The notes under the pieces: model-generated
What the model was told of the DNA's origin: nothing
Database searches by the model: none
The model's input: the letters and a program-made list of their open reading frames with translations, nothing else
Part shown: one piece after another, positions 4,686 through 39,952 of the stretch
Numbering within the stretch: the stretch's first letter is position 1
How the letters are laid out: every line of letters begins with the position of its first letter
Assembly: GCA_963616135.1 (NCBI GenBank)
Contig: CAVEJT010000001.1
Location: 76,844 to 140,843 of the forward strand
Reading direction: 5' to 3'
Origin: Bacteroidaceae bacterium
GTDB taxonomy: Bacteria > Bacillota_I > Bacilli_A > RF39 > UBA660
Length of the DNA: 64,000 bases
Program-made: the position numbers and the translations under genes

Positions 4686-4938
4686 ATAGAGTCATATCAA
4701 GTTTAAAATTTAAATCTTTGATAGTAATTTGAGTTTTAAAATAAGAATTATTGTATGGTTCTAAGTATAAAAAGTATTTACCTTTGTCTTTAATTATTTT
4801 AAGGTTATAGTTTTTATTTGAGTATTTAATTCTAAAACAATTATAAGAAATATAACTTACTCCATATCCTTTACTGCTAATATCATTATTATTTAAATAC
4901 TTAATTATCATCTTATTATAAATAAACTTTTTGATCAT
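4618..4938 (-). CDS. Hypothetical protein (106 aa)
   Basis: ORF heading the minus-strand operon; overlaps downstream gene. Confidence 0.4.
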   Translation of the reverse strand: MIKKFIYNKMIIKYLNNNDISSKGYGVSYISYNCFRIKYSNKNYNLKIIKDKGKYFLYLEPYNNSYFKTQITIKDLNFKLDMTLFAIKDNEELYGKQNIRKKKRKT

Positions 4939-5048
4939 AATTTACCTCACTAAAATTTATCACCCACACAAGTCGTGAGGGTTAGACCTTTTTCAAGGTG
5001 TATTTAAGGTATAATTAGCACATATTATGTATAGAGTGGGGTGATAAA

Positions 5049-5270
5049 GTGAAATTACAAGCTACTGATTATACAACCGAAGAAATTATTAAGATTTTGA
5101 GAGAGTGAACTGGACTAACTCAAAAGGATTTCGGAAAAACAATTAGCAGATCTGAACGCAGTATTCAATCTTTAGAATCTGGCGATAGACATTGTACCGT
5201 TGACACTTTATTACAAATAGCAAGAACTCATAACATAAAAATAGTAATAACGAAAGATGCTTCTAAGTAG
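5049..5270 (+). pseudogene. XRE-family HTH regulator disrupted by in-frame TGA (5106..5108) where Trp/basic residue expected
   Basis: Translation VKLQATDYTTEEIIKILRE*TGLTQKDFGKTISRSERSIQSLESGDRHCTVDTLLQIARTHNIKIVITKDASK; HTH_3 signature spans the stop; TATAAT at 5010..5015 upstream. Confidence 0.55.
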
Positions 5271-5478
5271 AAGTGTTTTTTTATACCTTTTTATTTTAAC
5301 GAACATTCACCTCCTAACTTAACTATTTAAAATATAGCAAAAAAATACAGCACAAGACAAGAGTTTTAATTCTTTTTTGTACTGCTAAATTTTCTCACTA
5401 TATAAAAAGTTTAACGCATAGCGTCCCAAAAGTCAAGAATTAACTGTATTTAATTTAAAATTATATATAGGTGATACA

Positions 5479-5931
5479 ATGACTTTAAGGTATGAAGAAT
5501 TAAGATTGGATATGGAAAAGAAGCAAGGAGATATAGCCGAAATTCTATCAGTTAAAAGAAATACTTACTCTAAATGGGAAAACCTTATTAATGATATGCC
5601 GTTAGAAAAATGCAATGAACTTGCTAATTACTATAAGACAACGCTAGATTATGTTTTAGGTCTATCAAATGTAAGAAAATATATAGATACACCGTTGTTG
5701 ATAGATTGGAAACTAGTTTCTGAAAGATTAACCGAATTACGTCATTCTAAGAATTTAACAGAAACGGAATTAAGTAGTAGAATAGGTTTTGCTCAAACAA
5801 CATATTCACATTATGAAATTGGAAAAAGAAGACCTACCACAATGAAATTATTATCAATAGCACAATACTATAATGTTTCTATTGATTATATTGTTGGTAG
5901 AACAAATAAAAAAAGTATAATTATTGAATAA
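5479..5931 (+). CDS. Transcriptional regulator with two tandem XRE-type HTH domains
   Basis: Two HTH_3-like segments (…GDIAEILSVKRNTYSKWEN… and …LTETELSSRIGFAQTTYSHYEIGKRRP…). Confidence 0.7.
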   Translation: MTLRYEELRLDMEKKQGDIAEILSVKRNTYSKWENLINDMPLEKCNELANYYKTTLDYVLGLSNVRKYIDTPLLIDWKLVSERLTELRHSKNLTETELSSRIGFAQTTYSHYEIGKRRPTTMKLLSIAQYYNVSIDYIVGRTNKKSIIIE

Positions 5932-5933
5932 AA

Positions 5934-5960
5934 ATAGCACTGAAAAAGGTGCTATTTTTC
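5934..5960 (+). terminator. Rho-independent terminator (TAGCAC tgaaaaag GTGCTA + TTTTT)
   Basis: Hairpin directly after stop of 5479..5931. Confidence 0.7.
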
Positions 5961-6021
5961 AGTGGTGGTGGTTCGTGTTTATTTTTTCGTAAAAAGCATA
6001 AACTAGAAATGGTGATGTTAG

Positions 6022-6279
6022 TTGAATACGAACCACGTCTGTAAAATATTAGGTGTTAATGTTAAATATTATAGATTTAAACTTGGTTATACTCAAGAAA
6101 AGTTAGCAGAATTATGTGATCTCAGTCCGAGATATATTAGCGATATAGAGAATTTCAAAGGAAATATTCCAATGAACACATTAGAAAATTTGGCTTTTGT
6201 TTTGAAAGTAGAACCATACATATTATTAAAAGAACATAAGCATCGTAGTTTACCAAAAAGAGTTAATATGAAAGATTAA
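6022..6279 (+). CDS. XRE-family HTH transcriptional regulator
   Basis: LGYTQEKLAELCDLSPRYISDIEN HTH_3 motif. Confidence 0.65.
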   Translation: MNTNHVCKILGVNVKYYRFKLGYTQEKLAELCDLSPRYISDIENFKGNIPMNTLENLAFVLKVEPYILLKEHKHRSLPKRVNMKD

Positions 6280-6423
6280 TTCTTTTTTTTGCTTTTATTT
6301 ATATAAAAAATAAATATAGAAATGACAGTTCGTGTAAAATTTTGGCTATATAGGCATTATCCAACTAAAATTAAAACTTTTTGTGATATAATTATATCAA
6401 GAGTAGTTTTGCTCATAGATGGG

Positions 6424-7284
6424 ATGATAATTATGGATTTATTGGAAAGAATAAATAATTGTAGTGATGATGAATTAACTTCAATAATAGATACAGCACT
6501 TCAAAGTGCAATAAACAATTCAGATAAAAAAGAAAGGTTAGGTTTTACTGATGGAGGAGCAGCAACAGCAAAAATTCCATCACATAAGGGATTTATACCA
6601 CCTGATTCAAGAATAAAGTATAGTAATTTATCAATGAATATGTATTCGATGAAAACAACTGATTATATTTATGAATTTGCAAATTATGTTAAAAGAAATA
6701 AGATAAGCAATAAAGGTACATTAGTTAAATATATAGAAAATTTTATAAATGGATACTTCGGAATTTCAAATGGTACTGATATGAGAGATGCGTATTTTGA
6801 TCAGATCGCCTTTCAGACTACAACAACAGATGATGAATATTTTGAAAAACTAGACAATTTAGAAATAGGTGATTTAAAAGGTAAAAATATTGCTATGTGT
6901 ACGGAGAGAGCTGCTATTGCTCAAAACTTATTATCGTTATTTGGATTTGATGTTTACTATTGTATGGGCTGTGTTAGTAATAATGGTAGAGAAGAATCAC
7001 ATTGCTTTAATATTGCTCGTGCAAAAGATACTTTTATGTTATTAGATTATAGTTTGCCAGTACCTGTATTTGAAAATGGTCGTGCTATTGATTATGCTCC
7101 ATTTCAAGGAAGTATTGGATTAGATGAATTGGAAGATGTATTAGTAAATGGCTTGAATAAAGATTTCCCATCTTATGAATATATTAGAACTCCACAGGGT
7201 ATTAAAAGGGTGGCTACTGGAGAATTAAGAACATATAATGTTGGAAGTATGACTTTTGAGCAAACACAATCTAAAAGTAGATAG
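6424..7284 (+). CDS. Transglutaminase-like cysteine peptidase-fold protein (ORF track start 6322 likely too far upstream)
   Basis: GKNIAMCTERAAIAQNLLSLFGFDVYYCMG...ESHCFNIA...LLDYS matches Cys/His/Asp core of transglutaminase-like superfamily. Confidence 0.5.
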   Translation: MIIMDLLERINNCSDDELTSIIDTALQSAINNSDKKERLGFTDGGAATAKIPSHKGFIPPDSRIKYSNLSMNMYSMKTTDYIYEFANYVKRNKISNKGTLVKYIENFINGYFGISNGTDMRDAYFDQIAFQTTTTDDEYFEKLDNLEIGDLKGKNIAMCTERAAIAQNLLSLFGFDVYYCMGCVSNNGREESHCFNIARAKDTFMLLDYSLPVPVFENGRAIDYAPFQGSIGLDELEDVLVNGLNKDFPSYEYIRTPQGIKRVATGELRTYNVGSMTFEQTQSKSR

Positions 7285-7292
7285 GAGATGTA

Positions 7293-7934
7293 ATGTGTAT
7301 GACTACTACCATATATTTAATAAGACATTCTGAACCATTTAAAACTCATATAGGTAGTGTTAATACTACGGAATCAATATTATTAGAAAATGAAAAAACA
7401 CCATTGAGTATTGATGGTGAAAAAATGGCAGAAAAGTTTTCACTTCTACCTGAGTTTAAAGATTTAGATGTAATCTACTCCTCTAACTATGCAAGAACAA
7501 TGTCTACTGCAAAATATTTTGCACATAATAACAATTTAAAAGTTAATATAGATGAAAGATTTAACGAAAGAATACATGGTGTAGATACTTGGAATGAATT
7601 GCCTATTAATTTTGAAGTGAATCAATTGCGTAATGAAAATTATAAAATTGGTTATGGAGAATCTAAAAAAGAGGTACAAGTACGAATGTATTCAGCATTA
7701 GTTTCACTAATAAGCAGATATAAAGGAAAAAGAATTGCAATTATATCACACGCAACAGCAATTACATTTTTATTAAGTATGTTTGGTGAAGTTGCATATA
7801 ATGGTGATTATACTTATAAATATAAAGAAATAGAATATTTTAATGGTGATTGGAATTATTTAGAAACTTTTAAATTGGAATTTGATGAAAATAACGTCTT
7901 ACAAAAGATAACTAATATAAAAAATAATAATTAA
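7293..7934 (+). CDS. Histidine phosphatase superfamily protein (phosphoglycerate-mutase-like)
   Basis: N-terminal IYLIRHSEP (RHG-type motif) and C-terminal IAIISHATAI (catalytic His region). Confidence 0.65.
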   Translation: MCMTTTIYLIRHSEPFKTHIGSVNTTESILLENEKTPLSIDGEKMAEKFSLLPEFKDLDVIYSSNYARTMSTAKYFAHNNNLKVNIDERFNERIHGVDTWNELPINFEVNQLRNENYKIGYGESKKEVQVRMYSALVSLISRYKGKRIAIISHATAITFLLSMFGEVAYNGDYTYKYKEIEYFNGDWNYLETFKLEFDENNVLQKITNIKNNN

Positions 7935-7949
7935 ACAAAATTTATAGAG

Positions 7950-7980
7950 GACTTGGAATTTTTTTCAAGTCTTTTAATTT
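7950..7980 (+). terminator. Rho-independent terminator (GACTTG gaattttttt CAAGTC + TTTT)
   Basis: 6-bp stem, T-rich tail after stop of 7293..7934. Confidence 0.65.
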
Positions 7981-8029
7981 ATATATGATTCTTATTTTTT
8001 ATTTGAATTAATTTATAGATTTTTTATAA

Positions 8030-8104
8030 AGAACTGTCAGTTCTACAAAAATAGTGTCAAAACTGTCAAATGCAAGTGTAAAATTGAACTTTATATGGTA
8101 TAAT
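8030..8104 (+). promoter_or_regulatory. Promoter/operator block A: palindrome AGAACTGTCAGTTCT, TGTCAAA direct repeats, -10 TATAAT 8099..8104
   Basis: ~85% identical to block B at 17169..17243; same spacing to downstream ATG. Confidence 0.55.
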
Positions 8105-8109
8105 TATAT

Positions 8110-10005
8110 ATGATAGACAGCGTAGAAAAAATATGTATCAGAAGGAGGTGTGGTATGAATGAAGCAGAATTAAATCAAAAGTTGGAAACAATTGTTAAAC
8201 TTGCTCAATCAAAAATAATAACTTTTTTAAGTGATTATACAAATGAGAATATAATTAATAAAGTTAAAGAAGTATTTGATAAGAATCCAGTTATTCTAGG
8301 AAATATTGAAAAGAAAGTTAGTGAATTTGGCAAAACTACAACAATAGGTGGGTTAGCATCAGAGTCTGATATAGCAATTTCAAAAGATGATGTGATGAGG
8401 TTTAGTTTAGATGAAGAGTATGAAGTTGATAGAATGTTAGGAACAATAATTCATGAATATGCTCATCAGTTTCGTAAAATGAATTCACAATATGGAAATA
8501 TGTTTGAAGAATCATTTGCAACAATTTTTGCAGAAACATGCGTTAACTATTCTAAAATGAAAAACATTGAAACTCATCCTCAAAGTGAAAGATTTCAAAT
8601 ACAAACTTCTGTTGAATACACAAAGGCAGAATCACAAGTTAGAGGATTGATGTTTGTTTTAAGGGAAAGAAACATGGATATTAACTTAATGTTAGAATAT
8701 ATATTAGGAAATGAGAAATATTTTCAACAAGTATGTTCTCAGGTGTTTGGACAAGGTTTTAACGATTATTACAATGAAGCAATCAATTTGCAAGAAAATA
8801 AACAATATTCAAATAAGTCTGAGAAATTATTAGTTGAATTATTAGCAAATTATATTAAAAACAATGATATAAGTGTTAAAAAATATTATCAAGGTACTCA
8901 ATTAGATGCAACAAATTTGTATTCAACTGGTAGTCCTATTTTTGTTGAAAGTGTAGTCAATGCTGGACAATCTTCTTTAAGACCAGAAGAACAAGATTTA
9001 TTTCGTTATTTTGAATACTCTACAAAAGTAAATAGAGAAGAACAACAATTTGTTGTTGACGAAAAAAGAACGAGAATACAAAATATGATAAGTCAAAAGT
9101 ATGGATTAGTAGGAAAAACTCCAGAACAATTACATGAAACATTAATGGATCTTTGTTCTGATTATATCCAATTTAAAAGTCGCACAGATGATGAAAGAAT
9201 GATTTATTTTGATGAAATAAAGAAAATAATTCCTAATATTGAAGAATTTTCTACAACATTTAAACAGTTGAGAATTTCTGGATTAGATAATAAAATAACA
9301 CAAAACTTAGATTTGAATAACATTAGTTATAGTAGTTTATTTACAGCAATGAACGGTTTAATTCCTAAAAAAGAATCAGAAACAACAAATATTCAACAAA
9401 CGCCAAAACCAGATTTGATATTTTATCATGGAGGTGCTGAACCAACATTTTCGATAGATCAATTAGATGTTTTAAGAAAGTCACAAAAACAACAAACACA
9501 AAGTAATTCTTATGCAGGTTTCTATATGTATTCAGAGCAAGATAGAGATGGAGCATTTAATTATGCAGAACAAGAAAATCGTAGAAAAAATACAACTACT
9601 AAAGGTGTTGTGAAAATAGTATTGGATGGCAATGTTAATACTTATCAAGTTCCACCATTTAGTATAACTAGAATAACACAGGATCAGTTAATTCAATTGC
9701 AGCAACAAGGTTATGATTTAATAGCAGGAAAGATGTTGGGCAAAACAGAATATGTATTACTAAATAAGGGCAAAATTAAAGACATGTCTTTTGAAAGTAT
9801 GGATAAGAGATATATTGATGAAAAAGAAATGACTTCATCAATTAATGATAATAATTCAATATCTAGTTTTAGAGAAGAAAGAGCATCAGAAATGGAACGA
9901 AGGAATCAAATAAGACAGCAACAATTAAGTTATGCTCAAGCAATTAAAATGAATCAAGCAGAATTTGAACAGTATTCTCAAAGTGTAGGAGGATTTAAAA
10001 AGTAA
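8110..10005 (+). CDS. Large HExxH zinc-metallopeptidase-motif protein (likely true start ATG 8155 after AGGAGG)
   Basis: HEYAHQF motif with downstream Glu-containing segment; otherwise unrecognised 600-aa protein. Confidence 0.5.
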   Translation: MIDSVEKICIRRRCGMNEAELNQKLETIVKLAQSKIITFLSDYTNENIINKVKEVFDKNPVILGNIEKKVSEFGKTTTIGGLASESDIAISKDDVMRFSLDEEYEVDRMLGTIIHEYAHQFRKMNSQYGNMFEESFATIFAETCVNYSKMKNIETHPQSERFQIQTSVEYTKAESQVRGLMFVLRERNMDINLMLEYILGNEKYFQQVCSQVFGQGFNDYYNEAINLQENKQYSNKSEKLLVELLANYIKNNDISVKKYYQGTQLDATNLYSTGSPIFVESVVNAGQSSLRPEEQDLFRYFEYSTKVNREEQQFVVDEKRTRIQNMISQKYGLVGKTPEQLHETLMDLCSDYIQFKSRTDDERMIYFDEIKKIIPNIEEFSTTFKQLRISGLDNKITQNLDLNNISYSSLFTAMNGLIPKKESETTNIQQTPKPDLIFYHGGAEPTFSIDQLDVLRKSQKQQTQSNSYAGFYMYSEQDRDGAFNYAEQENRRKNTTTKGVVKIVLDGNVNTYQVPPFSITRITQDQLIQLQQQGYDLIAGKMLGKTEYVLLNKGKIKDMSFESMDKRYIDEKEMTSSINDNNSISSFREERASEMERRNQIRQQQLSYAQAIKMNQAEFEQYSQSVGGFKK

Positions 10006-10271
10006 TGGAAGATAATTTTATAACTAAATATGATAAATTAGATATTAATACAAAAAGAAATCAATTGAGTGATGAACTTATTATAATTAATGAGTTAATT
10101 AAAAATGTTGAGGGCAAATATGGAATAACATCAGTGTCTAAAGTAAAAAACTATGATCAAGTTGGTGATGCTCATTTAACTGAAGGAGAAATGTTAACTT
10201 TCTTTTATGAGGATGTATTTAATATTCAGCAAGAGTTAATTACATTGTTAAGTGCAATAGATAAATTATAG
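10005..10271 (+). CDS. Hypothetical protein (88 aa), translationally coupled to upstream gene
   Basis: ATG overlaps stop of 8110..10005 (TAATGG). Confidence 0.4.
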   Translation: MEDNFITKYDKLDINTKRNQLSDELIIINELIKNVEGKYGITSVSKVKNYDQVGDAHLTEGEMLTFFYEDVFNIQQELITLLSAIDKL

Positions 10272-10350
10272 GTATTGACTCTCCACACGACTGAAATGTT
10301 AAACTTTAGATGGGAGGAGGAAATATTAGTAAAATAAAGGAGTAGATAAT

Positions 10351-10764
10351 ATGTACAAGATTGGTGATTTTGCGAAAATTGTAGATATTCCTGTAAGAAC
10401 TTTAAGATTCTATGATCAGTATGGAGTTTTGCAACCTTCAGAAATAGACAATTTTACAGGGTATAGATATTATAGTGATGAAAATATAGTGGAATGTGAA
10501 TTAATAAAATTACTTAAATCTTTGGATTTTACTCTTGAAGAAATCATACTTTATAAAAATTCTCTTGATGAAGAAGTTATAAAAAAGAAAAAGAAAGAAA
10601 TAGAGGAGCGAATCTATTTACTTAAATTAAAATACAAACGATTATCAATTCTTGAAGAAGAATTAAAAAACCAAAAAGAGTTTATAAATAAAACAAAAGA
10701 GTCACCTGAGGAAAAGGTGTTAAGGAGGAAATATGAAAAAAGAAATGTTGGAAAAAGTGTATAA
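10351..10764 (+). CDS. MerR-family transcriptional regulator
   Basis: YKIGDFAKIVDIPVRTLRFYDQYGVLQP...GYRYY N-terminal MerR HTH signature, coiled-coil C-terminus. Confidence 0.75.
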   Translation: MYKIGDFAKIVDIPVRTLRFYDQYGVLQPSEIDNFTGYRYYSDENIVECELIKLLKSLDFTLEEIILYKNSLDEEVIKKKKKEIEERIYLLKLKYKRLSILEEELKNQKEFINKTKESPEEKVLRRKYEKRNVGKSV

Positions 10765-12112
10765 TGCACAAAAAAATATAATTGTTTCAGGAGATATGGC
10801 AACAGGAAAAACTACTAGTGTCTTATTCCCATTAATGGATAAAATGATTGAACAACAAGAAAGTCTAATGATATTAGACTCAAAAGAAGAGTATATAAAT
10901 AAATATTATAAGAATTTAAAAGAAAAGAATTACAATATTGTTGTATTAAATTTAAGAGATTTAGATAAAAGTGATGGATGGAATCCAATTCAAATTGCCT
11001 ATGAATTATATAAAGATGGTAATACAGATAAAGCAATGGATTACTTAGATAAAGTAGCAAAAATAATGTTTTATGAAGAATCATCTGTTGATCCATTTTG
11101 GGCATCAGCTGCATCTGATTTCTTTACAGGAGTAGTTTTGGCATTATTTGAAGATGCAGATAAAGATGAAATTAATTTAAATAGTGTTAGTATGATGTTT
11201 GAAGGAGTTAATGAAAAATTCGGTGCAAGTGATTACTTGACAAATTATTTTAAATTAAAAGATCCAAGTTCACAATCTTATGTTTCAGCATCTACAACAG
11301 TTTTAGCCCCAAAAGAAACAAAAGGAAGTATAGTATCAGTTGCTAAACAAAGATTAAGAACCTATGTTTCAAGAGAAAAATTAAGCATATTGATGAATAA
11401 AACAACATTTAACTATAAAGATATAGCAACCAAACCAACTGCAATTTTCTTTATTGCAAAAGATGAGAGTAAATACTTAAATGCTCTAGCAGCTATGTTT
11501 ATAGAACAATTATTTACTGTTTTATTTGATACGTTTGATTTTAAATCTTCTAACAAATTTAATTTTGTTTTAGATAATTTTGATATTATTGAAAAAGTAA
11601 ATGAATTTACTGATATGCTAAGTTCTGGGTTATCAAAAAGAATTAAATTTACTGTTTCAACTCGTTCCTTAGAAGATCTAACTGCTAAATATGGTAATTA
11701 TATTACAAAATTAAGTAATATAATATATGTTGCTTCTGGATTATTAAAAATAAAAATAGATGATAAAGATGAAACGATTGAGAATAAATTTGAAAAAATA
11801 ATAGACGTTTATAATGAAGTTGATTATCCAAAATTAAACCATGTTTCAATAAAAGTTTTCGATTTAAAAAAGTTTGTAAGAGAAGCAAAGAAACAAGATA
11901 TGGAAAATACTTTTAATGAATTGCCACCATTATCAAATCCATTTCCATCAATGTTAAATGAAGGCAATAAGAATATAGATGATTTATTAAAAAAAATAGA
12001 TGATAAAATTGAGGAATTAGATGCTCAAGAAAAAATGTATAATATTGAACAACAAGAAGAAAAGGTCGAGTCTGAAATTGCTAAGTTTAAAATTGATGAT
12101 GAAACTAAATAA
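10733..12112 (+). CDS. Soluble, probably ATPase-degenerate paralog of the VirD4/TraG coupling protein
   Basis: Walker A GDMATGKTT; VVLNLRDLDKSDGWNPI and DPFWASAAS align with VVLNLVDKSKSDHFNPL and DPFWEKAEM of the bona fide T4CP at 37918..39861; DPKGE replaced by DSKEE and Walker B DEW by DNF; no TM segment. Confidence 0.55.
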   Translation: MKKEMLEKVYNAQKNIIVSGDMATGKTTSVLFPLMDKMIEQQESLMILDSKEEYINKYYKNLKEKNYNIVVLNLRDLDKSDGWNPIQIAYELYKDGNTDKAMDYLDKVAKIMFYEESSVDPFWASAASDFFTGVVLALFEDADKDEINLNSVSMMFEGVNEKFGASDYLTNYFKLKDPSSQSYVSASTTVLAPKETKGSIVSVAKQRLRTYVSREKLSILMNKTTFNYKDIATKPTAIFFIAKDESKYLNALAAMFIEQLFTVLFDTFDFKSSNKFNFVLDNFDIIEKVNEFTDMLSSGLSKRIKFTVSTRSLEDLTAKYGNYITKLSNIIYVASGLLKIKIDDKDETIENKFEKIIDVYNEVDYPKLNHVSIKVFDLKKFVREAKKQDMENTFNELPPLSNPFPSMLNEGNKNIDDLLKKIDDKIEELDAQEKMYNIEQQEEKVESEIAKFKIDDETK

Positions 12113-12126
12113 GTAGGTGTGTAATA

Positions 12127-13233
12127 GTGATAGAAGAATATGTAAAAGATATTAAAATAAAAAATTTAGATAAATTGGCAGAATATAGAACTAAGTTATA
12201 TGAAAAGCCAATATTAAAGGACTTATTTTTAGAAGTGACATTAAGATGCAATGCAAGATGTGAACATTGTGGAAGTAGTTGTGGCGACACGATTCAAAAA
12301 GATGAAATAAGTGCCGAAGATTTAAAAAATACTTTGAAAGAAATAGCAGAAAAGTATAATGCTAATGATATATTGTTGAATGTCACAGGAGGAGAACCTT
12401 TAGTAAGAAAAGATTTATTTGATATTATGAAATATGCTTCTTCACTAGGTTTTAGATGGGGCATGACAACAAATGGAATGCTAATTAATGATGAGATAAT
12501 CAATAAAATGATTGAAACTAATATGGAAACTATATCTATTAGTTTAGATGGTTTAAAAGAAACACACGAAAGGTTTAGACGAGTACCAAATAGTTTTGAT
12601 AAAATTATAGAAAATGTAAAAAAACTACAACAAGTACCATCAATAAAAATTGTTCAAATAACAACCGTAGCAAACAAAAAAAATCTGCATGAATTAGAAG
12701 ATGTTTATAATCTTATGAAAGAATTAAATATTATTTCTTGGAGAGTAATAAATGTTGATCCAATAGGTAGAGCCAAAAATAATAAAGAGATTTTATTGGA
12801 TAAAGAAGAATATAAGTATTTATTTAATTTTATCAAAGAAAAACGTGAAGAAAATATAATGAATGTAGAATATGGATGCAGTCACTACTTAGGATTGAAT
12901 TTAGAAAAAGAATTGAGAGATACATACTTTATTTGTACAGCAGGATTATATGTTGCAAGTATTCTAAGCAATGGAGATATATTTATATGTCCTGATGTTG
13001 AAAGAAAAAAAGAATTTATACAAGGAAATATAAAAACGGATAGTTTTGTTGATGTATGGGAAAATAAATTTAAATTATTTAGAACAGAGAATAGAACCAA
13101 ATGCAGTAAATGTGAAAAATGTTCCAATTGGAAATATTGCTTAGGAGATTCATTTCATACGTTTAATTTTGATGAAGGAAGACCTAATTTTTGTATAAAA
13201 GATATTTTTGGAGATGATAACTGTGATTTATAA
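12127..13233 (+). CDS. Radical SAM enzyme with C-terminal SPASM domain (peptide/protein-modifying maturase class)
   Basis: CNARCEHCGSSC (CxxxCxxC) near N-terminus; Cys-rich C-terminus CSKCEKCSNWKYC...FC typical SPASM auxiliary cluster. Confidence 0.8.
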   Translation: MIEEYVKDIKIKNLDKLAEYRTKLYEKPILKDLFLEVTLRCNARCEHCGSSCGDTIQKDEISAEDLKNTLKEIAEKYNANDILLNVTGGEPLVRKDLFDIMKYASSLGFRWGMTTNGMLINDEIINKMIETNMETISISLDGLKETHERFRRVPNSFDKIIENVKKLQQVPSIKIVQITTVANKKNLHELEDVYNLMKELNIISWRVINVDPIGRAKNNKEILLDKEEYKYLFNFIKEKREENIMNVEYGCSHYLGLNLEKELRDTYFICTAGLYVASILSNGDIFICPDVERKKEFIQGNIKTDSFVDVWENKFKLFRTENRTKCSKCEKCSNWKYCLGDSFHTFNFDEGRPNFCIKDIFGDDNCDL

Positions 13234-16114
13234 TAATAAACTAAAAAGAGCTAAACTTGAAAAAATTACGCAGCAATTTATTGATAATATAAATAAATTT
13301 GAAATATTTAAGATACCTGATAAATTATATTTAGACTATTTTGACCAATTAAAAAAATTATTTAATAATTATAAATTTGATGGTGATAATAGATTTTTTA
13401 CTTATGGTAGATTAGATTTTTTAAGAAAAGAGTTAACTGAAAGATTGAATGATCCAAAATTAGAAAAAGAAAGTCCAAATTGGAAAGATAAATGGGATAA
13501 TAGATTAGGTGCTTTTTGGGATTTATATGATTATATTAGAGGCGATAGGCATTTTACTCCAGGCAATATACCAGATGGAATGAATTTTAGAGATAGGCTA
13601 ATTATGAATGACCAATACTATAAAGATGGATATATTTGTAAACAAGAAAAAGATATATTATTAGAAATGATAAATGAAATTGTTCTATTTATAGAATCTA
13701 AACAAAAGAGAAAAAATGAAACTTCTCCTGATTTAAGAAAACTAATTTTCAAAATAGAAGACCATGATTGGGGAATGAAAACAATTTATAGTTGGAACAC
13801 AAAAGTATGGTATATATATGATGATTTATCAGTTGAGTTTAAAATTAGAAATGGAGAAGATAAAGTAAAATCGTATTCTCATAATATAAGTTCATTTGAT
13901 TTGCAACAAATATTTAAAAATATTGAACTTGCAAAATTGAATAATCATGTTGTTGAAGCTTATGATGGTGAGGCATGGGAATTCACACAATACAAAGATA
14001 ATGTCATAGTATGGGAAAGAAAATTAGAATATATATATGGTATAGAACCATTAGAAAATATATGTGATATATTATTTAATTTAGTAAAACAAGATTCTGA
14101 TATATTTACTGATAATGAAATGGAGGAGAATGATATGGGATTATTTAGTAAAAAAGATAAGTATAATGTTGATGTCGAAAAAAATAGACCTCAAATTGTA
14201 TATGGGATACCAGATGCTTTGAGAAAACAATGGGAGGAAGAAGAAAAGAAAAAGAAAAAGGAAGATAATAAGTATAATATAGATCCATCTGATAATGTTC
14301 CCCAAAAGGTTTATGGTGTTCCTAATTATGATTTTTCACAAGATAAAAATGAAAATAAGGAAAAGTATGATATAAATCCAGAAGATAATGTTCCAAGAGA
14401 AGTATATGGTATTCCGTCACCAATACAAAAAGAATTGGATAAAGCAAAAGATAAATATGAAGTTAAGCCAGAGAAAAATAATCCACAAAGAGTATATGGT
14501 GTTATGAATCCAGAAAAATTTGAATTAGATTTGAATAAGAAAAACAAAGAGAGTATAAGCGTTATTATTGATGATTATTGTCTTTCATTGACAAAATGGG
14601 ATAATACTTGTGATTTATTATTTATGAATAAATCTAAAGTATCATTTATAAAAGATTCAATTGTTTCAATATCATTAGAGAAATATGATAAATTTGTTAG
14701 TAAAATTAATGCTATTGTATCTGATTGGGAAAATGAATATATAGGAGAAAAAAACATTAAATGGCAAATTAAATTTAATACAAAAGAATTAAATAAAATA
14801 ATTGTAGGAAATGGTGAATATCCTTTAAATTGGAATAAGTTTATTGAGTTAATTTCTGAATATGAGACATTATTCAAAAAAACAATTATTTATAATAGTA
14901 AAGAGTCAAAACTAAATCTAAATGCCTCTTTTGATGAAATAGTCAAAGAAAAAGTAAATGATCCATTTTGGGAAAAATTAATATCAGACTATTTGAAACA
15001 AGAAATAGATAAGAATGAAACTGTTTTAAAAATAATATTTAAGGATTTATCAAAATATGATGACATATTTAATGAATTTACAAAGTATGTTGTACAAAAA
15101 AACTATGATATACCAAATGCTATAAGCGTTGAAGGATATACTGCCAAAAAGATTGCTGAATTAAATCCTAATTTTAAACCTACTGGAGTATATACATTCT
15201 TAAAATATTTAAGAGAACAACCTGAAGAAGCAAAAAAAACAATAGCAAAAGGATTTCCAAATAAAGATTCGATACAAAATCATGAAAAAAAATTGAAATC
15301 AATATCTGCTATTGAAAAAATCGGAATTCCTACAAAACAATTCGAAAATACAATATTATTTGTGTCAGAAGATGGTTTGATTGCTACTGTTGATAATCAA
15401 AGAGAATCTATAACTAGTGAAAAGTTTGATAAGATTTGTGATGTCGTTTATCAAAGTCAAAGTAAGCTTAGAGAAATAGCAAAACAACAAACACAAGAAT
15501 TTTTGAGTTCACATGTTATGTATGATGATACTGTAAGAAAATTTATAGTTAAATTAGAAGTAGAAGAATTAAATTTGAGTTATCATACTGGTACAGAATC
15601 AGATCAATATATTTTAAATCTAGTAAATGAGATTATAGGAATTATAAAAGATAATTCTAATAATAAAAAAGACATTAATGGAAAAAAATCACAAGAAGTA
15701 GTCACTAGGGAAGATTGGGCAAAGCCAATGCCAGAGCAAAATATTGTGTTTAAAATGGATAGGGTGCTAACTGAAAGTGAAATTGATATATTGAAAAGAG
15801 GTCATAAACCAGAAGTAATGGAAGATAAATGGTATTGGTATGTTGAAAATAATATCTTAAATATTCACCGTAGTTGGACTGGAAACTGTTTATTCAAAGT
15901 AGAATTAAATACTAGTGGTAAGTTAAAAGTAATAGCTAACCGTGATCCAGAACAATATAAAGAAACAAGCGTTGAAAAAGATAAAGAAAATATAAATAGA
16001 TTATTAGATTATTGGACTAAAGAAGATTATGATTATTATGAGCAGTTTATAAGTGAAACTTATAATAATTTGGTTAATAGTGGTTTAATAAAAGATGAAA
16101 ATATTGACAGTTAG
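13208..16114 (+). CDS. Large hypothetical protein (968 aa) with four ~34-aa repeats carrying N-x-P-Q/R-x-VYG-V/I-P
   Basis: Repeats KYNVDVEKNRPQIVYGIP / KYNIDPSDNVPQKVYGVP / KYDINPEDNVPREVYGIP / KYEVKPEKNNPQRVYGVM at nt ~14155..14520; start overlaps rSAM gene. Confidence 0.5.
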   Translation: MEMITVIYNNKLKRAKLEKITQQFIDNINKFEIFKIPDKLYLDYFDQLKKLFNNYKFDGDNRFFTYGRLDFLRKELTERLNDPKLEKESPNWKDKWDNRLGAFWDLYDYIRGDRHFTPGNIPDGMNFRDRLIMNDQYYKDGYICKQEKDILLEMINEIVLFIESKQKRKNETSPDLRKLIFKIEDHDWGMKTIYSWNTKVWYIYDDLSVEFKIRNGEDKVKSYSHNISSFDLQQIFKNIELAKLNNHVVEAYDGEAWEFTQYKDNVIVWERKLEYIYGIEPLENICDILFNLVKQDSDIFTDNEMEENDMGLFSKKDKYNVDVEKNRPQIVYGIPDALRKQWEEEEKKKKKEDNKYNIDPSDNVPQKVYGVPNYDFSQDKNENKEKYDINPEDNVPREVYGIPSPIQKELDKAKDKYEVKPEKNNPQRVYGVMNPEKFELDLNKKNKESISVIIDDYCLSLTKWDNTCDLLFMNKSKVSFIKDSIVSISLEKYDKFVSKINAIVSDWENEYIGEKNIKWQIKFNTKELNKIIVGNGEYPLNWNKFIELISEYETLFKKTIIYNSKESKLNLNASFDEIVKEKVNDPFWEKLISDYLKQEIDKNETVLKIIFKDLSKYDDIFNEFTKYVVQKNYDIPNAISVEGYTAKKIAELNPNFKPTGVYTFLKYLREQPEEAKKTIAKGFPNKDSIQNHEKKLKSISAIEKIGIPTKQFENTILFVSEDGLIATVDNQRESITSEKFDKICDVVYQSQSKLREIAKQQTQEFLSSHVMYDDTVRKFIVKLEVEELNLSYHTGTESDQYILNLVNEIIGIIKDNSNNKKDINGKKSQEVVTREDWAKPMPEQNIVFKMDRVLTESEIDILKRGHKPEVMEDKWYWYVENNILNIHRSWTGNCLFKVELNTSGKLKVIANRDPEQYKETSVEKDKENINRLLDYWTKEDYDYYEQFISETYNNLVNSGLIKDENIDS

Positions 16115-16159
16115 AATAGAAAAACAAAAATGTTTATTTTCTAATTAAGGATAGATGTT

Positions 16160-17083
16160 ATGGATAATAGTATAATAAATATAGGTTTAATAAAAAAAAT
16201 AAATTCTTTCTTAAAAAGAACAAATAGTCTAAAATATTTAGATCCAAACATATTTGAAAATATAGATGAAAGTAAAGAAGTAAATGATATGCCTTTTACT
16301 GATTATTATTTAGAATATATAAATAGTTTGCCAAGATTAGATTTTGAAAATGTAGTTAAAATTTCAAGAGAAGTATATCAATTATATGGAAAAGAAAAAG
16401 ATTTTGATAATATACTAGAAAAATTAGTAAGTAGTTATAGTATAACTGAAGGATCATTAAATAAAGATGATGATAACTGTATAACAAAGGCATCCGAAAG
16501 TAGAGTGTTATTATCTGGAACTTGTTATGATGTGGTGTTGCTATGTCATGAGATAGGACATAAATTAAGATTTGATAATTCTAAAAGCACTTCTGATATA
16601 ATGGATAGTTTTCTCTTTGAAACTCCATCAATTATACTTGAATTGAGTGCAAATGATTATTTGAGAGATAATTATGGCGTTGATATTAAAGCAGATGAAC
16701 TAAGAAAAGCACATATTTTAAGCACTAAAAGAGAAAATGGTGTGGAAAATAATATATTTCAAATTATAATAAGTTTATTAAAAGAAAGAAAATTAAATGC
16801 TATAAACTTATATAAAGAATTTAATAGAGATATGAATATTGTTGAATATCTTAATAAACAAGGTTCTTCTATTGAGGATTGTATTGATGAAGGAATATCT
16901 GCCTACTCATACGATATAGGTTATATACTAGGTACTTATATAAATAATAGTGACAATAGAATAGAATTTTTAAATATGCTATTAAAATATAAGGACAAAG
17001 GAATTAATATGCCGTTCACTATTGAAGAAGGAATTATTAAGACAACATTAGAAAGTCAGAGCATACGAAGCACTAAAAAATAA
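16160..17083 (+). CDS. HExxH metallopeptidase-motif protein (possible ImmA/IrrE-like)
   Basis: VVLLCHEIGHKLRF motif; size and motif compatible with COG2856-like anti-repressor proteases, assignment uncertain. Confidence 0.4.
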   Translation: MDNSIINIGLIKKINSFLKRTNSLKYLDPNIFENIDESKEVNDMPFTDYYLEYINSLPRLDFENVVKISREVYQLYGKEKDFDNILEKLVSSYSITEGSLNKDDDNCITKASESRVLLSGTCYDVVLLCHEIGHKLRFDNSKSTSDIMDSFLFETPSIILELSANDYLRDNYGVDIKADELRKAHILSTKRENGVENNIFQIIISLLKERKLNAINLYKEFNRDMNIVEYLNKQGSSIEDCIDEGISAYSYDIGYILGTYINNSDNRIEFLNMLLKYKDKGINMPFTIEEGIIKTTLESQSIRSTKK

Positions 17084-17104
17084 TACATTTAGTTTTTATC
17101 AAGA

Positions 17105-17130
17105 AACATCTAAAGATTTAGATGTTTTTT
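17105..17130 (+). terminator. Rho-independent terminator (AACATCTA aagatt TAGATGTT + TTTT)
   Basis: 8-bp stem and T-run after stop of 16160..17083. Confidence 0.65.
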
Positions 17131-17168
17131 GTATCTCTTAAACTTGATTAACCAAAAGATATTTTTCA

Positions 17169-17243
17169 AGAACTGACATTTCTATAAAAAACAAGAGCAA
17201 TGTGTCAAATACGAGTGTAAAATAAAAGAATTTATGATATAAT
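17169..17243 (+). promoter_or_regulatory. Promoter/operator block B (duplicate of block A): palindrome AGAACTGACATTTCT, TGTCAAAT/TGTAAAAT repeats, -10 TATAAT 17238..17243
   Basis: Alignable base-for-base with 8030..8104. Confidence 0.55.
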
Positions 17244-17248
17244 TATAG

Positions 17249-20200
17249 ATGATAGGAGTAGATATTGATATGAATGAATACGAAAAAATAATTAATGAAA
17301 TTAATTCTGGCTTAACTGGTGATACGCAACATGATTATAGTTATTTATTAGAGCAAACTGAAAAGTATAAACAACATCCAATGAGTCATGAGATATTAAA
17401 AGAAATTGGACGAAAAATATATGAAGTTTTACCAAGTGAAGGTAAGAAAGAATTGTCTAAAGCAATTGATTTAGATTTAAAATCATTAAATAAAAAAATA
17501 GATGAAGCAAACAATTATATTTTACAACATAATTATGAACCTGCAAAAAAAATATTAAACGAATATTTAGATGCTGCTTTAAATGCTTATAAAGAAGATC
17601 AGATAACTAGATATTTTACTTTTAAAGATGTTATAGAATTTTATTGTTCTAAAGAAAAACTAAACATACAGAAAAAATTAGTATGGATTGATTTAAGAAC
17701 TGATGATGCCTATAAATTACTTGCCTATATTGCTTCTGAAGAAAAGAATTTTTCTCAAGCGATTGATTATTTAGAAAAAGGATTATATTTTAATCCAATG
17801 AATTTAGGACTACGTTTTGAATATGCAGAATCATACAAGATGCAACTTAATATGGAAAAAATGTATGAGTCAACAAAAAATATTTATGACTACATATATG
17901 ATCCTGTTATGTTGGCAAGATATTATAGATTATTAGGATATTATTTTGTTGAAAAAGAAAATTATGATGTCGCTTATTCTTTATATGCAATCAGTATATA
18001 TTATGAAAATAATGAAATGGCTCATCATGAAATAAACTATATAAAACAAAAAACAGGAAATCCTGATTTTGAAAAGACAACAGCAGAAATTTTAAATTTA
18101 TTGAAACAACAAAACATACCTATCACTATTAGTGAAAGTAATTTAAATCAACTAAAGAACTTATCAGTTGAGAAACAAGTTATTGAAAAACAACCTGCCT
18201 TAATAAAGTATTTAAATAATGTTATTGATATTTTTACAACGCCAATAAATGATTCTACCGAAATTAAAGGATTAAAAATAACAACACCTAAAATAACAAC
18301 TGAAGAAATTTTTGATGAAAACAAATTAATACTAGATGAAGAAGATAAAAACAGAATTAAAAAAAATATCGAAATTTTAAAACAAAAGGATATACCATTT
18401 ATAGAACACATGAAAGCTATTCCTTTTAATTCATGTACTAGTTTACGTTCAAAAGAAGAAATAATAAGTAGAATGTTAGCAGATTATGCAATTGCTACAT
18501 GTGCCTTATATTCTTTAGAAGGAAAAGCAAATATTGTACATTCTGTTTTAAATCAAATGGATGAAAAATTAAATATGAAGTCTGCTCTAGCACCTGAAGA
18601 TACAAATTTTTTAAATGCAATAGCAGAACAAAAAGTTTCGAAGCAGGGATTACAAGATGCAACTTGGGCTTTTGAAGAATGTACTATGCTAATGTGGACG
18701 TTAAGTTTAATTGATAAACCTAATTCTGATAAAGAGTGTAATGTTGAACAATTGGATAAATTCTTCTTTAATATTAAAAATTATGATGAATTATTATCGC
18801 AATGTACTTTAAAGTCAAAAGAAGAAATCCTAGAACAAGCAGATTTATTATTTAGATATCATTGGGCTTGTCGTGAAACAAGAATGAAAGGTAAACAACT
18901 ACCACAATTAAATGAAATGATTGTTCAAGAACAACGTCGTGCTTTAGAATGGGCATTAAATTGGAAAATTGAAAATTTGATGAAAGAAAAAATAAATATT
19001 AAATACGAAAGAGATAATTTTAATTTTAACTTTAATGCATCAACTGAATTACACATATCTAATATTACCAATCCAAAAGACTATAATTTGTTATTAACAT
19101 TATCTGATAGTAAAGAACAAATAGTAATTTCAATGTCGGATGTTGGACCTGAATCTGGTTATCCACTTGATGCTTATTTTGAAGAGGATATAAGAAAACG
19201 AAAAGCAGAAGGTTGGAATATAGTTGGCACATATTCTTTATCATCACAAAATATAAAAGGTGGATTTAAACAATTGATTATGAATAGAGAAATGCCACAA
19301 GTTAAAGATGCAAAATTAGGATTAAGTGTTTACTATTTTGTTTTAAATGAACATATAGTAGTTTTAAAAACAGTATTAGAAGATACATTGGATTACTCAG
19401 ATAATAATAATATCCAAAATTCTAAACACAATATCCTAGCTATGGACATGTTATTTTCAATAAAAGAAAGTGAATCTTCAACAATTACTGATGCGGCTAT
19501 AAAAATGGCTACAATGATGAATTTCGGATTACATGCACGACAATTAGATATACCTCTATTAAAGAATTTTAAAATAGAGGAAGTAAATGAACCACAAATT
19601 GTTTTTTCAGCTACTGATGGTATGTATATAGAACAATTGGTATCAGACGGATCTATGAAACCAAATGAAACTTTTGAACAAAGAATAAATTTAGTTGTTA
19701 AAAATACAACAGAATTTATGAGTAAGTATTCTCCAGCTAATAACCCTGCTAATAGTGAAAATAAGTTGTTCTATTACAAGGATTATTCAAATGGTGTGTT
19801 CAATTATAAAATATATGTACTTGATGGAATAATAGAAGTAAATAATACTACTAAGGTAATAAGACAATTTAATGCTTATTTCGTAGAACCAAAGTTTAAT
19901 GATTTTTATCAGTTAACAATATCAGCACCTGCATTATCAATGCCAACTGAAGTATTAAAATTGGGTGTTGTTGATTTGGATACAGATGAAATAACGCAAT
20001 GTCTTAATAATTTATTAACATTGGCAATGGATAATTTAAAATATAAAAATGAACAGTCAAGTGGTAATAATGAAACAACAAATCAAATAGAAGAAACAGA
20101 AACAATCCAAGAGGAGGAAAAAGATATGGATTATGGATATATTAACGAAGACGAACCTTCAGTAAAAAATAACGAATATGATTATTCTACTATTATTGCA

Positions 20201-28898: not shown

Positions 28899-28923
28899 TT
28901 CTATTTATTGAAGGGAGCAAACA

Positions 28924-31900: not shown

Positions 31901-32055
31901 CTGATATTCAGAGAGATTATATAGCAAATCATACTAATTATACCAATTATAATTATCCATACTTATATTGGGTTGCTGTATCATGTACTAATGGTATAGG
32001 AGATACTTGGACTAGAAGTGTAGGAACTAAACAATTTACTAGTCAATATCAGTAA
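28924..32055 (+). CDS. Membrane-anchored surface protein with ~12 Listeria-Bacteroides (Flg_new) repeats
   Basis: Recurrent GY(S/T)F.GW motif every ~70-80 aa; N-terminal TM; two near-identical internal DNA repeats. Confidence 0.7.
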   Translation: MIKKYIAIEHENSRYCKGVPYISKKEFKKNKNNLIVGKTKLKKYKSSSENKDLDLLLFNDKEFEIKERLFGFKKGYVFVGDDKYIALKRRIPFLFLLLLLLIVFIMFRFLIPCSNQEDKPIVVPVQKEVIISEDNEDKETIKEEIKVENPNKVKPSSKQELSKEYKITFDSNGGYGSMESIICKLDNICILNENKYTKEGYSFQGWSTKNNGVAEFQDKAELKNLSSKNGDNITLYAVWQIKFYKITFLDYDKSIIQQDKLEYNSKIILPENPIRKGYTFKNWDKELSTVKENLTINALYDIDSYDISYKLNGGTLDEAPTNYNIESEDIIIPSPKKVGYSFIGWTTPDNKEPIIDYKISTGSVDNIELEANYDANIYNLIFNSKDNNDSLIKRKIKFDSEYGILPEVEKDGYTFNGWKNSNGDFVSSDTLYNVPEDTNLYAEWNLITYDIKYNLNGGMIDEAPTNYNVESEDIIIPSPKKVGYSFIGWTTPDNKEPKIDYKISTGSIGDKELTANYEPIAYYISYNSSEGQGEMEKQEFAYNQTSKLNKNQFTKEGYTFIGWSTSIDGDVMFNDESEISNLSSKDKDVITLYAKWKIIKLNVKYYDLFGALLKSETVEYGNKSVAPEDMFIDGYTFEGWNPSLGVIREDTIYKAQYTINEYTIKYNFNTGNNDDAQEIKYNVESDMITLPTPTRTGYTFLGWTGSNGLKPQLEVIIHKGSIGDKTYKANWVSNSYKVSLNANGGVVNEDYIMISYNSLYGTIPTPTRVGYTFEGWYYNDTLITEDSIQDKEFDHELVANWKTIQYDITYNLAGGTASPLQTSYNIESDSFVLPVPTRTGYTFTGWTGTDLSSLSKNVTINKGTIGNRSYTANWTINYYTVNYYVNGSLWATRSVAYNTALENLDAQSALDIYHKFNYWEGWVDKMPTNTVNLYANITESYCMLMTGHGPYKNAEGLLNVFKSAGWTGRIEEAPSAPGFYWVVTDYTLTRAQADIQRDYIANHTNYTNYNYPYLYWVAVSCTNGIGDTWTRSVGTKQFTSQYQ

Positions 32056-32616: not shown

Positions 32617-32633
32617 TTTTTTTTAAAACTAAT

Positions 32634-32649
32634 GTTTACTTGTGTAAAC
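32634..32649. promoter_or_regulatory. Operator variant GTTTACTTGTGTAAAC (one mismatch)
   Basis: 15/16 match to dispersed operator; overlaps start of 32640 ORF. Confidence 0.45.
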
Positions 32650-39925: not shown

Positions 39926-39952
39926 GAAAAATTAAAGAAAAGGAGAAAAATT

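Follow-up and report, generated by a model that had tools for sequence, protein, structure and literature searches.

Why should nearly the same short block of DNA stand in front of successive operons of one mobile element, and what might it do there? The question is raised by a 64-kb stretch of contig CAVEJT010000001.1 (assembly GCA_963616135.1, positions 76,844 to 140,843), referred to here as the window. By its Pfam content the window is an integrative conjugative element (ICE), because it encodes an integrase, a relaxase, a coupling protein (T4CP), type IV secretion genes, a primase and ArdC. A sequence-only reading of this DNA had described two blocks of about 90 bp, each with a palindrome and a promoter, and had proposed that a palindrome-binding factor co-regulates the two units behind them. 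The analysis presented here identifies three blocks (A, B and C) at the head of three consecutive operons, and the comparison with related elements suggests that this shared module of dyad and promoter probably ties the operons into one regulon under a dimeric, element-encoded regulator. The coordinates of all features are collected in Table 1.

Three repeated blocks

Block A (8030–8112) and block B (17169–17251) align without gaps and are identical at 61 of 83 positions, and a repeat search widens the pair to 8023–8116 against 17162–17255 (94 nt, 74%). As a null for this similarity, block A was slid along every 83-nt segment of the 64-kb sequence on both strands, which gave a mean of 25.9 matches with a standard deviation of 4.1. 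The 61 matches of block B correspond to a z of 8.5, far above this AT-rich background, which bears out the near base-for-base alignment described by the sequence-only reading. A third copy, block C (6318–6400), matches block A at 51 of 83 positions (z 6.1); it had been missed when the blocks were counted as two. All remaining 83-nt segments score 45 or less, and there is no further copy of the block in the window.

The palindrome of each block has the core GAANTGNCANTTC (GAA-N-TG-N-CA-N-TTC). A motif that recurs at several promoters and is rare elsewhere is the pattern of a shared operator, and this core occurs exactly three times in the window, once per block, against 0.03 expected. A position-weight matrix (PWM) built from the related dyads gives the lowest of the three dyads 19.7 bits, and the next-best site in the window, which lies inside an adhesin gene, reaches 14.0 bits. 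The distance from the dyad start to the T of TATAAT is exactly 69 bp in blocks A, B and C, the dyad ending 55 bp ahead of TATAAT. Block C carries GTGTAAAAT at 6332–6340 and TGATATAATTATA at 6384–6396, and exact TGNTATAATTATA (plus strand) and GTGTAAAAT are found in the window at the three blocks only. The palindrome, the direct repeats, TATAAT and ATGATAG (8110–8116 and 17249–17255) were all located where the sequence-only reading had placed them. A search of the blocks for a second, weaker operator, in the form of half-sites close to the -35 or +1 positions, showed nothing conserved in register. In the literature, 10-mers of the dyad match primer-type strings only and its 13-mers occur in no paper.

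Conservation of the module in related elements

Relatives were found through homologues of the 616-aa HExxH protein encoded behind block A, in pig, human and other gut metagenomes (proteins 59–75% identical), and are given L numbers. The protein-retrieved loci L002, L005, L007 and L008, obtained with no DNA-based selection, carry the module at the same three positions, namely after the 85-aa helix-turn-helix (HTH) gene (type C), before the operon of HExxH, 88-aa, MerR, T4CP-like and radical-SAM genes (type A), and before the DUF4272 gene (type B). Scanning species-representative genomes and metagenomes with the pattern added close copies and a more distant lineage (L013, L021, L033, L038, L041, L044, L050 and L051) with two more promoter types, D and E. 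An exact-pattern scan of viral contigs returned three unrelated chance matches only.

Conservation was counted over 16 non-redundant module instances. The pairs G1/C13, A2/T12, A3/T11 and T5/A9 of the dyad are invariant (16/16), G6 and C8 are kept in 15/16 and 14/16, and the centre and positions 4 and 10 vary, giving the 15-bp consensus wGAAnTGnCAnTTCy. On this comparison the mirror-symmetric conservation is the footprint of a dimer, and the dyad is probably a protein operator. An AAA at -19 to -17 from TATAAT is also invariant (16/16), and GATAG about 10 nt past the -10 is kept across instances. The repeat TGTCAAAT is kept in type A of L002, L005, L007, L019 and L051 and in all type B modules, and type A of L038 has TGTAAAAAT.

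All intact modules of types A to E keep the dyad 69 bp from the -10, or in a few cases 68 or 70 bp. The two exceptions are the type C of L005, which is split by an insertion sequence, and a degraded type A in L033. The roughly 51 bp between dyad and -10 show mostly 35–50% identity between types, against a composition background of 34%. Because the spacing is held while the intervening DNA is near background identity, it is by this comparison the length, and not the sequence, of the interval that is under selection. In L005 (1847–3600), a DDE_Tnp_1 insertion sequence lies about 20 bp 3' of the type-C dyad and parts it from an intact core promoter, a natural spacing mutant. A helical-phase series of spacings (58/59, 79/80, 90) is absent from the ICE loci, and the only shifted case, at 81 bp, belongs to a different element.

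The dyads are also confined to these modules. Within 237 kb of ICE-type loci every dyad of at least 16 bits sits in such a module, and the 112 kb of chromosomal loci fetched from related hosts hold no dyad of 14 bits or more. Among species-representative genomes the module is found in three metagenome-assembled genomes (MAGs) only, and the three matches in a Clostridia MAG are copies of this element. Taken as sequence comparison, the orthologous positions, the mirror symmetry, the spacing of 68–70 bp and the confinement of dyads to modules support co-regulation by a palindrome-binding factor, with the correction that three units and not two would be involved.

Two groups of relatives show further arrangements around the same core promoter. 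Divergent genes (355–357 aa and DUF6985) lie upstream of block A in L002 (about 600–700), L005 and L007 (about 9800–9900), and their promoter TGnTATAAT...GATAG shares the block A dyad at 32 or 52 bp. The distant MerR/T4CP-like operon of L065 (230–300) shares the core promoter (TGTTATAATTATATACAAGAGTAG) but not the dyad; in its stead a different small palindrome, TGAATAATTCA, is centred about 25 bp before the -10.

Core promoters and translation starts

The extended -10 of sigma-A (sigma-70-type) promoters, TGn followed by TATAAT, is present in all three blocks and in 16/16 related instances, mostly as TRTG. A TTGACA-like -35 at 16–18 bp is absent in blocks A–C; the best hexamer at the -35 position, GTGTAA, matches TTGACA at 3/6 and lies within GTGTAAAAT of block A. 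Since no hexamer at 16–18 bp reaches 4/6 of TTGACA, a consensus promoter scan skips all three blocks. From their sequence, the blocks are best read as three sigma-A-type promoters that lack a -35. Transcripts start 6–8 nt past the -10 in the textbook spacing, and the transcription start of block A is predicted at about 8110–8112. The dyad centre falls at about -74 (± 1) from the predicted start for a dyad-to-TATAAT distance (d) of 68–70, some four helical turns upstream of where a -35 would sit and well beyond the polymerase footprint.

A terminator-like hairpin precedes both block A and block B (7945–7976 and 17100–17131), as the sequence-only reading had noted. The leaders behind the promoters are short (about 20–45 nt) and have no significant structure (folding z of -0.6, +0.4 and -0.2), and an Rfam search of the whole window gave no matches.

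That reading had left two alternatives for translation, either from ATGs led by a ribosome-binding site (RBS) at 8155 and 17270 or from leaderless transcripts starting at the ATG 5 nt past the -10 (8110 and 17249). The first alternative is supported, as strong RBSs lie ahead of ATG 8155 and ATG 17270, the gene caller and the homologues start at 8155 (MNEAEL..., 616 aa), and RBS-led starts are kept among relatives. Leaderless translation draws on the in-frame position of ATGs 8110 and 17249 relative to the long open reading frames (ORFs) and on a 7-codon extension that stays open in three type-B promoters, but the ATG is not kept in frame in relatives, and GATAG is what they retain. The type A ATG runs into stops in L002 and L007 and is missing in L005 and L051, and type E reads ATG-TGA. 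Because the ATG past the -10 is thus lost or followed by a stop, leaderless translation is unlikely, and to a degree that leaves it scarcely credible.

Candidate regulators

The gene immediately upstream of block C encodes an 85-aa Xre/SinR-like protein, HTH-85. Among solved structures it comes closest to 3vk0, to the DNA-binding domain of SinR, with which it aligns over about 70 residues (E 3e-6), and to restriction-modification controller proteins; the SinR and controller-protein structures in this comparison include PDB entries 3qq6, 1b0n/3zkc, 2b5a and 3clc. The HTH-85 stop codon lies 28–60 bp upstream of the dyad in the window and in L005, L007, L008, L011, L028, L029, L048, L033, L035, L038, L051 and L087–L092, and the gene directly precedes the dyad-promoter in three element types, wherever upstream DNA is visible. 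In the lineage of L035, L038, L051 and L033, HTH-85 is present and the 73-aa and 150-aa HTH genes are missing, with chromosomal genes starting just beyond. The L087–L092 loci are a different element (HTH_36/AAA+/ClpP), in which HTH-85 is followed by the dyad AGAACTATCGGTTCT placed 81 bp before TGTTATAAT. This spacing is about one helical turn more, with a predicted dyad centre at -86, and no MerR-family match is listed among the called genes of these loci. Because of its adjacency to the dyad in three element types and its kinship to SinR and controller proteins, HTH-85 is the most likely dyad binder, a role for which the sequence comparison gives it about an even chance.

Members of the HTH-85 family are very common in small mobilisable elements of the serine-recombinase/Mob_Pre kind (L079–L086, represented by P0090, and L074/L075), in which a 78-aa HTH gene accompanies them. 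For P0090 the collection indexes 766 blocks, and these Mob_Pre elements carry no dyad. A promoter and leader of about 65 bp is kept in front of the HTH-85 gene in all contexts. Half-site-like strings (AGAAnTGGTG) at this promoter were considered as operators and rejected, as they score about 5 bits or less and were taken as not significant.

The MerR-family protein encoded in operon A, MerR137, is the runner-up and, judged from its sequence and distribution, an unlikely binder. It is 99–100% identical across elements whose flanking 88-aa and T4CP-like genes are 75–81% identical, which suggests either unusually strong constraint or recent exchange. Two loci, L065 and L067, encode a MerR protein (72–73% identical) and its operon and have no dyad. 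A negative-feedback operator at the regulator's own promoter is not found for HTH-85, and from the layout of the genes one would exist only if MerR137 were the binder.

Proposed mechanism and alternative explanations

The operons at 6433–7934, 8155–17083 and 17270–25340 each open with the same cis module, which runs from an upstream terminator (A and B) through the 15-bp dyad, about 51 bp of A/T-rich DNA, TRTGnTATAAT and a short unstructured leader to the RBS and ATG. In the proposed mechanism, a dimeric HTH regulator of the element would bind the dyad and so switch about 19 kb (6433–25340) jointly; HTH-85 would supply the binder, with MerR137 next in line. The bound dimer near -74 could then touch the C-terminal domain of the RNA polymerase alpha subunit in a class-I-like manner and stimulate the promoters. 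The analysis leans tentatively to such activation, as a lone dimer at -74 cannot occlude polymerase, the promoters have no -35 and the spacing is held to 1 bp; the L087–L092 relative, shifted by roughly a turn, was counted on the same side. The sign of regulation is the weakest and least certain step of the explanation.

Several observations weigh against this account. The TRTGnTATAAT consensus and the dyad-less core promoter of L065 indicate that the promoter may be active alone, which favours repression over activation, and the dyad of L002 overlaps the -35 zone of the divergent promoter (d = 32), a repressor-like geometry. Homologues of HTH-85 with an identical recognition helix (LSPRYISDIE) occur at Mob_Pre mobilisable elements and chromosomal sites with no dyad nearby. 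The conserved promoter of the HTH-85 gene itself, searched up to 110 bp upstream in 9 loci, has a best PWM score of no more than 5.4 bits and gives no clear sign of autoregulation. MerR137, for its part, is kept inside the regulon in all dyad-bearing ICEs with the MerR/T4CP operon (window-, L038-, L051- and L033-type). Instances found by pattern are also biased towards the pattern, and only the protein-retrieved loci are unbiased; the ten dyads from those loci show the same invariances as the full set.

The same module may instead serve a repressor, with HTH-85 or MerR137 silencing three strong promoters in the established element and a burst following in a repressor-free recipient through negative feedback and overshoot. 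Strong promoters held by element repressors that fire transiently after transfer are described for R388 (PMC3937220) and for Reg576 of p576 (PMC6294495), and by analogy repression by means of a looped or other higher-order complex, followed by a burst after transfer, is a possibility to be taken seriously, if not the one preferred. The TRTGnTATAAT consensus is perfect in all types and, as in L065, can stand without a dyad, the L002 dyad covers the -35 zone of a divergent promoter, and small Xre/SinR-type proteins are usually repressors (PMC3163267). The position of MerR137 inside operon A, at 99–100% identity beside neighbours at 75–81%, would also match the way in which feedback is arranged in R388 (PMC3937220) and, with Reg576, in p576 (PMC6294495). 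A single dyad at -74, or -86 in L087, however, does not overlap RNA polymerase, and the blocks contain no conserved second operator. For MerR137 in particular, L065 and L067 have the MerR gene and operon without a dyad, the L087 type has HTH-85 and a dyad with no MerR-family match among the called genes listed, and the canonical MerR operator would lie inside a 19–20 bp spacer. The blocks also seem by position to lie outside the leading region, with ArdC and a methylase adjoining the relaxase end of the element. Activation remains the tentatively preferred sign of regulation.

It is improbable that a host global regulator, such as a LexA-like SOS repressor, Rex or another chromosomal factor, binds the dyad and plugs the element into a host regulon. 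SOS control is common in mobile elements, and the AGAAC...GTTCT arms of block A superficially resemble the Gram-positive LexA (Cheo) box, CGAAC-N4-GTTCG, in their GAAC and GTTC. Both LexA and Rex had been named in the sequence-only reading as motifs for comparison, and neither fits. The gap between the arms is N5 and not N4, the C at position 4 (11/16) and the G at position 10 (8/16) are the least conserved arm positions, and the inner TG/CA is kept in 14–16/16. A LexA operator overlaps the -35, the -10 or +1, whereas TATAAT starts 55 bp past the end of this dyad, which thus stands far upstream of the core promoter elements. The Rex box, TTGTGAA-N4-TTCACAA, has six bases from GAA to TTC and TGTGAA arms, unlike the GAA-N7-TTC of the dyad with its variable flank in place of TGT (positions -5 to 0). 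The dyad-free 112 kb of related-host chromosomal DNA (threshold 14 bits) and the restriction of the module to three species-representative MAGs, with the Clostridia matches being copies of this element, also argue against a host regulon. Still less probable is the reading of the blocks as merely duplicated strong promoters, in which the palindrome would be a passive relic, a recombination anchor for cargo swap or a roadblock behind a terminator. The first genes do vary among relatives (616, 488, 230 or 218 aa behind block A, and 1131 or 418 aa behind block B) and so do the genes upstream of block A, which places the blocks at mosaic junctions, and the T run of the type D terminator abuts the dyad. 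A relic, however, would not hold mirror-symmetric invariance and spacing to 1 bp while the intervening DNA randomises, no recombinase-type inverted repeats flank the promoters, and the dyads are only 15 bp long.

A broader proposal, and an unlikely one, is that the module is a portable master switch. A minimal 85-aa SinR-like HTH protein without oligomerisation or sensor domain, a rigid dyad at -74 or one turn further and promoters without a -35 would then form a cassette reused to bring unrelated accessory operons under control in several mobile-element families of uncultured gut Bacillota. The same protein with an identical recognition helix occurs in the very abundant Mob_Pre elements that have no dyad, and for this reason these elements could possibly cross-regulate, in trans, the accessory operons of a co-resident ICE.

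Operons and element context

The three operons make up about 19 kb of contiguous accessory genes (6433–25340) between a regulatory cluster and the adhesin and transfer genes of a 26% GC window in which nearly all coding is on the plus strand. The first gene of operon C is also called as 283 aa in relatives. The blocks head the 631-aa HExxH gene and the 1138-aa TPR operon, as the sequence-only reading had it; the 631-aa ORF of operon A contains a HEYAH motif, and the 1138-aa ORF has TPR and DUF4272 matches. Where that reading spoke of cargo genes, the downstream operons are better described as conserved modules of an ICE family than as arbitrary cargo. Operon A is syntenic in L002–L008, L038 and L051, and its set of 88-aa, MerR, T4CP-like, radical SAM, ~965-aa and M10-like genes is kept across the family. 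Operon B probably terminates at a terminator-like hairpin predicted at 25450–25471.

In the HExxH protein (8155–10005), an N-terminal region of about 420 aa is conserved, whereas the C-terminal regions are interchangeable; its homologues (P0003–P0066) are 406–897 aa long and cover only 61–68% of the query. By these sequences its architecture is polymorphic and effector-like. Further along operon A (10733–13233), the radical SAM/SPASM enzyme comes after a coupling-protein-like ATPase that is the second of its kind and shorter (459 aa). The radical SAM/SPASM enzyme matches the prokaryotic-viperin models of PADLOC (E 1e-28), and a PADLOC search of the operon proteins gave generic radical-SAM (pVip) and MerR-HTH matches only.

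Table 1. Predicted features of the window, by position in the 64-kb stretch
Feature	Position	Strand	Remarks
Xre-type HTH gene cluster	4900–6280		Pfam
HTH-85, 85-aa Xre/SinR-like HTH gene	6022–6279	+	Pfam HTH_3; immediately upstream of block C
Dyad operator (predicted), block C	6318–6332	n/a	AGAAATGACAGTTCG; PWM 19.7 bits, rank 3 in window; exact core match
Extended -10, block C	6384–6392	+	TGATATAAT; TATAAT 69 bp past dyad start
Operon C	6433–7934	+	283-aa gene (true start ATG 6433) and histidine phosphatase (7293–7934); ends at hairpin 7945–7976
Terminator-like hairpin	7945–7976	+	14 pairs then T run; closes operon C, insulates block A
Dyad operator (predicted), block A	8030–8044	n/a	AGAACTGTCAGTTCT; PWM 25.3 bits, top of window
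Repeats TGTCAAA, TGTCAAAT and GTGTAAAAT, block A	8055–8084	+	TGTCAAA at 8055 and 8064; GTGTAAAAT at 8076
Extended -10, block A	8096–8104	+	TGGTATAAT, preceding TA gives TATG; TATAAT 8099–8104
GATAG, start of transcribed region	8112–8116	+	Kept in types A and B and in relatives' divergent promoters, even without ATG
Operon A	8155–17083	+	616-aa HExxH protein, 88-aa protein, MerR, T4CP-like ATPase, radical SAM/SPASM enzyme, ~965-aa protein, M10-like peptidase
MerR137, MerR-family regulator in operon A	10351–10764	+	Pfam MerR_1; alternative candidate binder
Terminator-like hairpin	17100–17131	+	Closes operon A, precedes block B
Dyad operator (predicted), block B	17169–17183	n/a	AGAACTGACATTTCT; PWM 21.4 bits
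TGTCAAAT then GTGTAAAAT, block B	17203–17223	+	TGTCAAAT at 17203, GTGTAAAAT at 17215
Extended -10, block B	17235–17243	+	TGATATAAT; TATAAT 17238–17243
Operon B	17270–25340	+	1131-aa TPR/DUF4272 protein, metallophosphoesterase, three unknown genes, two ADP-ribosylglycohydrolases
Two LPXTG-style adhesins	25572–32055		Pfam
Primase	33534–36599		Pfam
Coupling protein (T4CP)	37918–39861		Pfam
Gram-positive-type type IV secretion genes (TrbC-like, PrgI, VirB4-like, CHAP)	39908–45919		Pfam
ArdC	51577–52521		Pfam
MobA/VirD2-type relaxase	56761–58446		Pfam; NikA-like partner at 56007
Tyrosine integrase	62689–63963		Pfam

The nearest public copies of the element are metagenomic, in the human-gut MAG "Clostridia bacterium HGM13690" and in other contigs labelled "Bacilli bacterium", and megablast of positions 7000–20000 against deposited phage and plasmid collections found no similar sequence. 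The ICE family is previously undescribed and occurs widely in uncultured gut Firmicutes.

Within the HTH gene cluster, a 73-aa Xre-type HTH gene (5049–5270) has codon 20 changed from TGG to TGA, giving a stop at 5106–5108. The gene is intact in L005, L007 and L008, and the region is otherwise 97% identical. Decoding of this in-frame TGA by code 4 or code 25 was considered and rejected, as the long ORFs are all intact under table 11 and the relatives have TGG. The gene may be a pseudogene or reflect a sequencing error, and altered regulation of the element is possible. In the Listeria-Bacteroides-repeat adhesin gene, a 209-nt direct repeat (88% identity) and more 45-nt repeats (29836–30476) represent ordinary domain repetition.

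A second repeat family, ATTTTTTTT-N8-GTTTACTAGTGTAAAC, occurs at 287–322, 412–459, 32616–32663, 39892–39950 and 47366–47424, with five copies of its 16-mer against 0.4 expected. Its copies sit immediately in front of the RBSs of transfer-side genes, namely those for the TrbC-like pilin, a 297-aa protein and a 217-aa HTH protein; no -10 follows, and as RNA the repeat is able to fold into a hairpin (z -2.2). It may mark a second regulon or act as a signal for processing or antitermination. The shared string AGTGTAAA was considered as a link between the blocks and the GTTTACTAGTGTAAAC family and rejected, as that family has no downstream -10 and stands directly before RBSs.

If the three operons do form one regulon, about 19 kb of unexplained accessory genes would switch as a unit through one small regulator. 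Among these genes are the ones for a zincin whose C-terminal domains are swappable, for the second coupling-protein-like ATPase and the radical SAM enzyme, and for ADP-ribosylglycohydrolases and phosphoesterases; one dyad, one 85-aa protein and three promoters would offer an experimental handle on when they are used. Further members of the regulon could be sought in metagenomes with the signature GAAnTGnCAnTTC, 52 ± 1 nt, TGnTATAAT.

Comparison with known systems

Class I activator sites of the CRP type lie near -61.5, -72.5 and -82.5. The present promoters resemble them in having the dyad on one helix face, well upstream of a poor -35, at a fixed predicted position of about -74 and, in one relative, about -86. 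They differ in that the regulator family is unrelated and the -10 is already consensus, and the positions compared rest on a predicted start and a single shifted example. A MerR-type activated promoter was also considered and rejected; its dyad should lie in the spacer between -35 and -10, and here no dyad is present in the spacer. The master-activator boxes of AcaCD and SetCD in IncA/C plasmids and SXT/R391 ICEs (PMC4207636, PMC4542580) are alike in that one element-encoded factor serves many promoters without a good -35 through a conserved box, always in the same place. Those factors are FlhDC-type heteromeric activators whose box overlaps the -35, and they have no sequence or protein kinship to the dyad module.

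The motif recognised by SinR is GTTCTYT, with a preference for its inverted repeat (PMC3163267). GTTCT also closes the arms of the dyad, a likeness that is best taken as a lead. The right arm reads GTTCT in 7/16 non-redundant dyads, with T at position 14 in 10/16, and its sixth and seventh bases are A and Y against the Y and T of SinR. HTH-85 lacks the C-terminal tetramerisation domain of SinR. The arm orientation and the conserved inner TG/CA of the dyad are presumably also unlike the SinR arrangement.

The IncP regulators KorA and KorB form a global repressor network of conjugative plasmids. Such networks, including ArdK/StbA of R388 and those of other conjugative plasmids (PMC3937220, PMC9723621), resemble the present arrangement in that repeated operators at several strong promoters join backbone and accessory operons in a few regulons. 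They come from Proteobacteria, most of their operators overlap the core promoter or adjoin it, and their regulators are all autoregulated repressors, whereas here the dyad lies far upstream.

Of the systems described so far, the Reg576 regulon of the Bacillus pumilus plasmid p576 comes closest. Its four clustered TGnTATAAT promoters have a repeated motif in common, placed upstream of the -35, and respond to a plasmid-encoded regulator (PMC6294495). Both belong to a Gram-positive conjugative element with clustered operons, sigma-A TGnTATAAT promoters and one short shared motif upstream of the -35, both were first recognised through repeated upstream motifs, and the Reg576 regulator is encoded by its element, as is the candidate here. 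The Reg576 operator consists of paired direct TTATCCC heptamers next to the -35 with additional sites near the RBS, in contrast to the one inverted repeat of 15 bp found here, which is rigidly spaced and lies upstream by about 38 bp more. Reg576 itself is a ribbon-helix-helix repressor that controls its own promoter, whereas the candidate here belongs to HTH_3, and at the promoter of its gene no operator of this type was detected. Regulons built on a shared operator are an ordinary kind, and the understanding of mobile-element regulation is unchanged by the one proposed here; what is new is its occurrence in an undescribed ICE family, and, relative to Reg576, the type and position of the operator, the fold of the candidate regulator and the lack of evident autoregulation.

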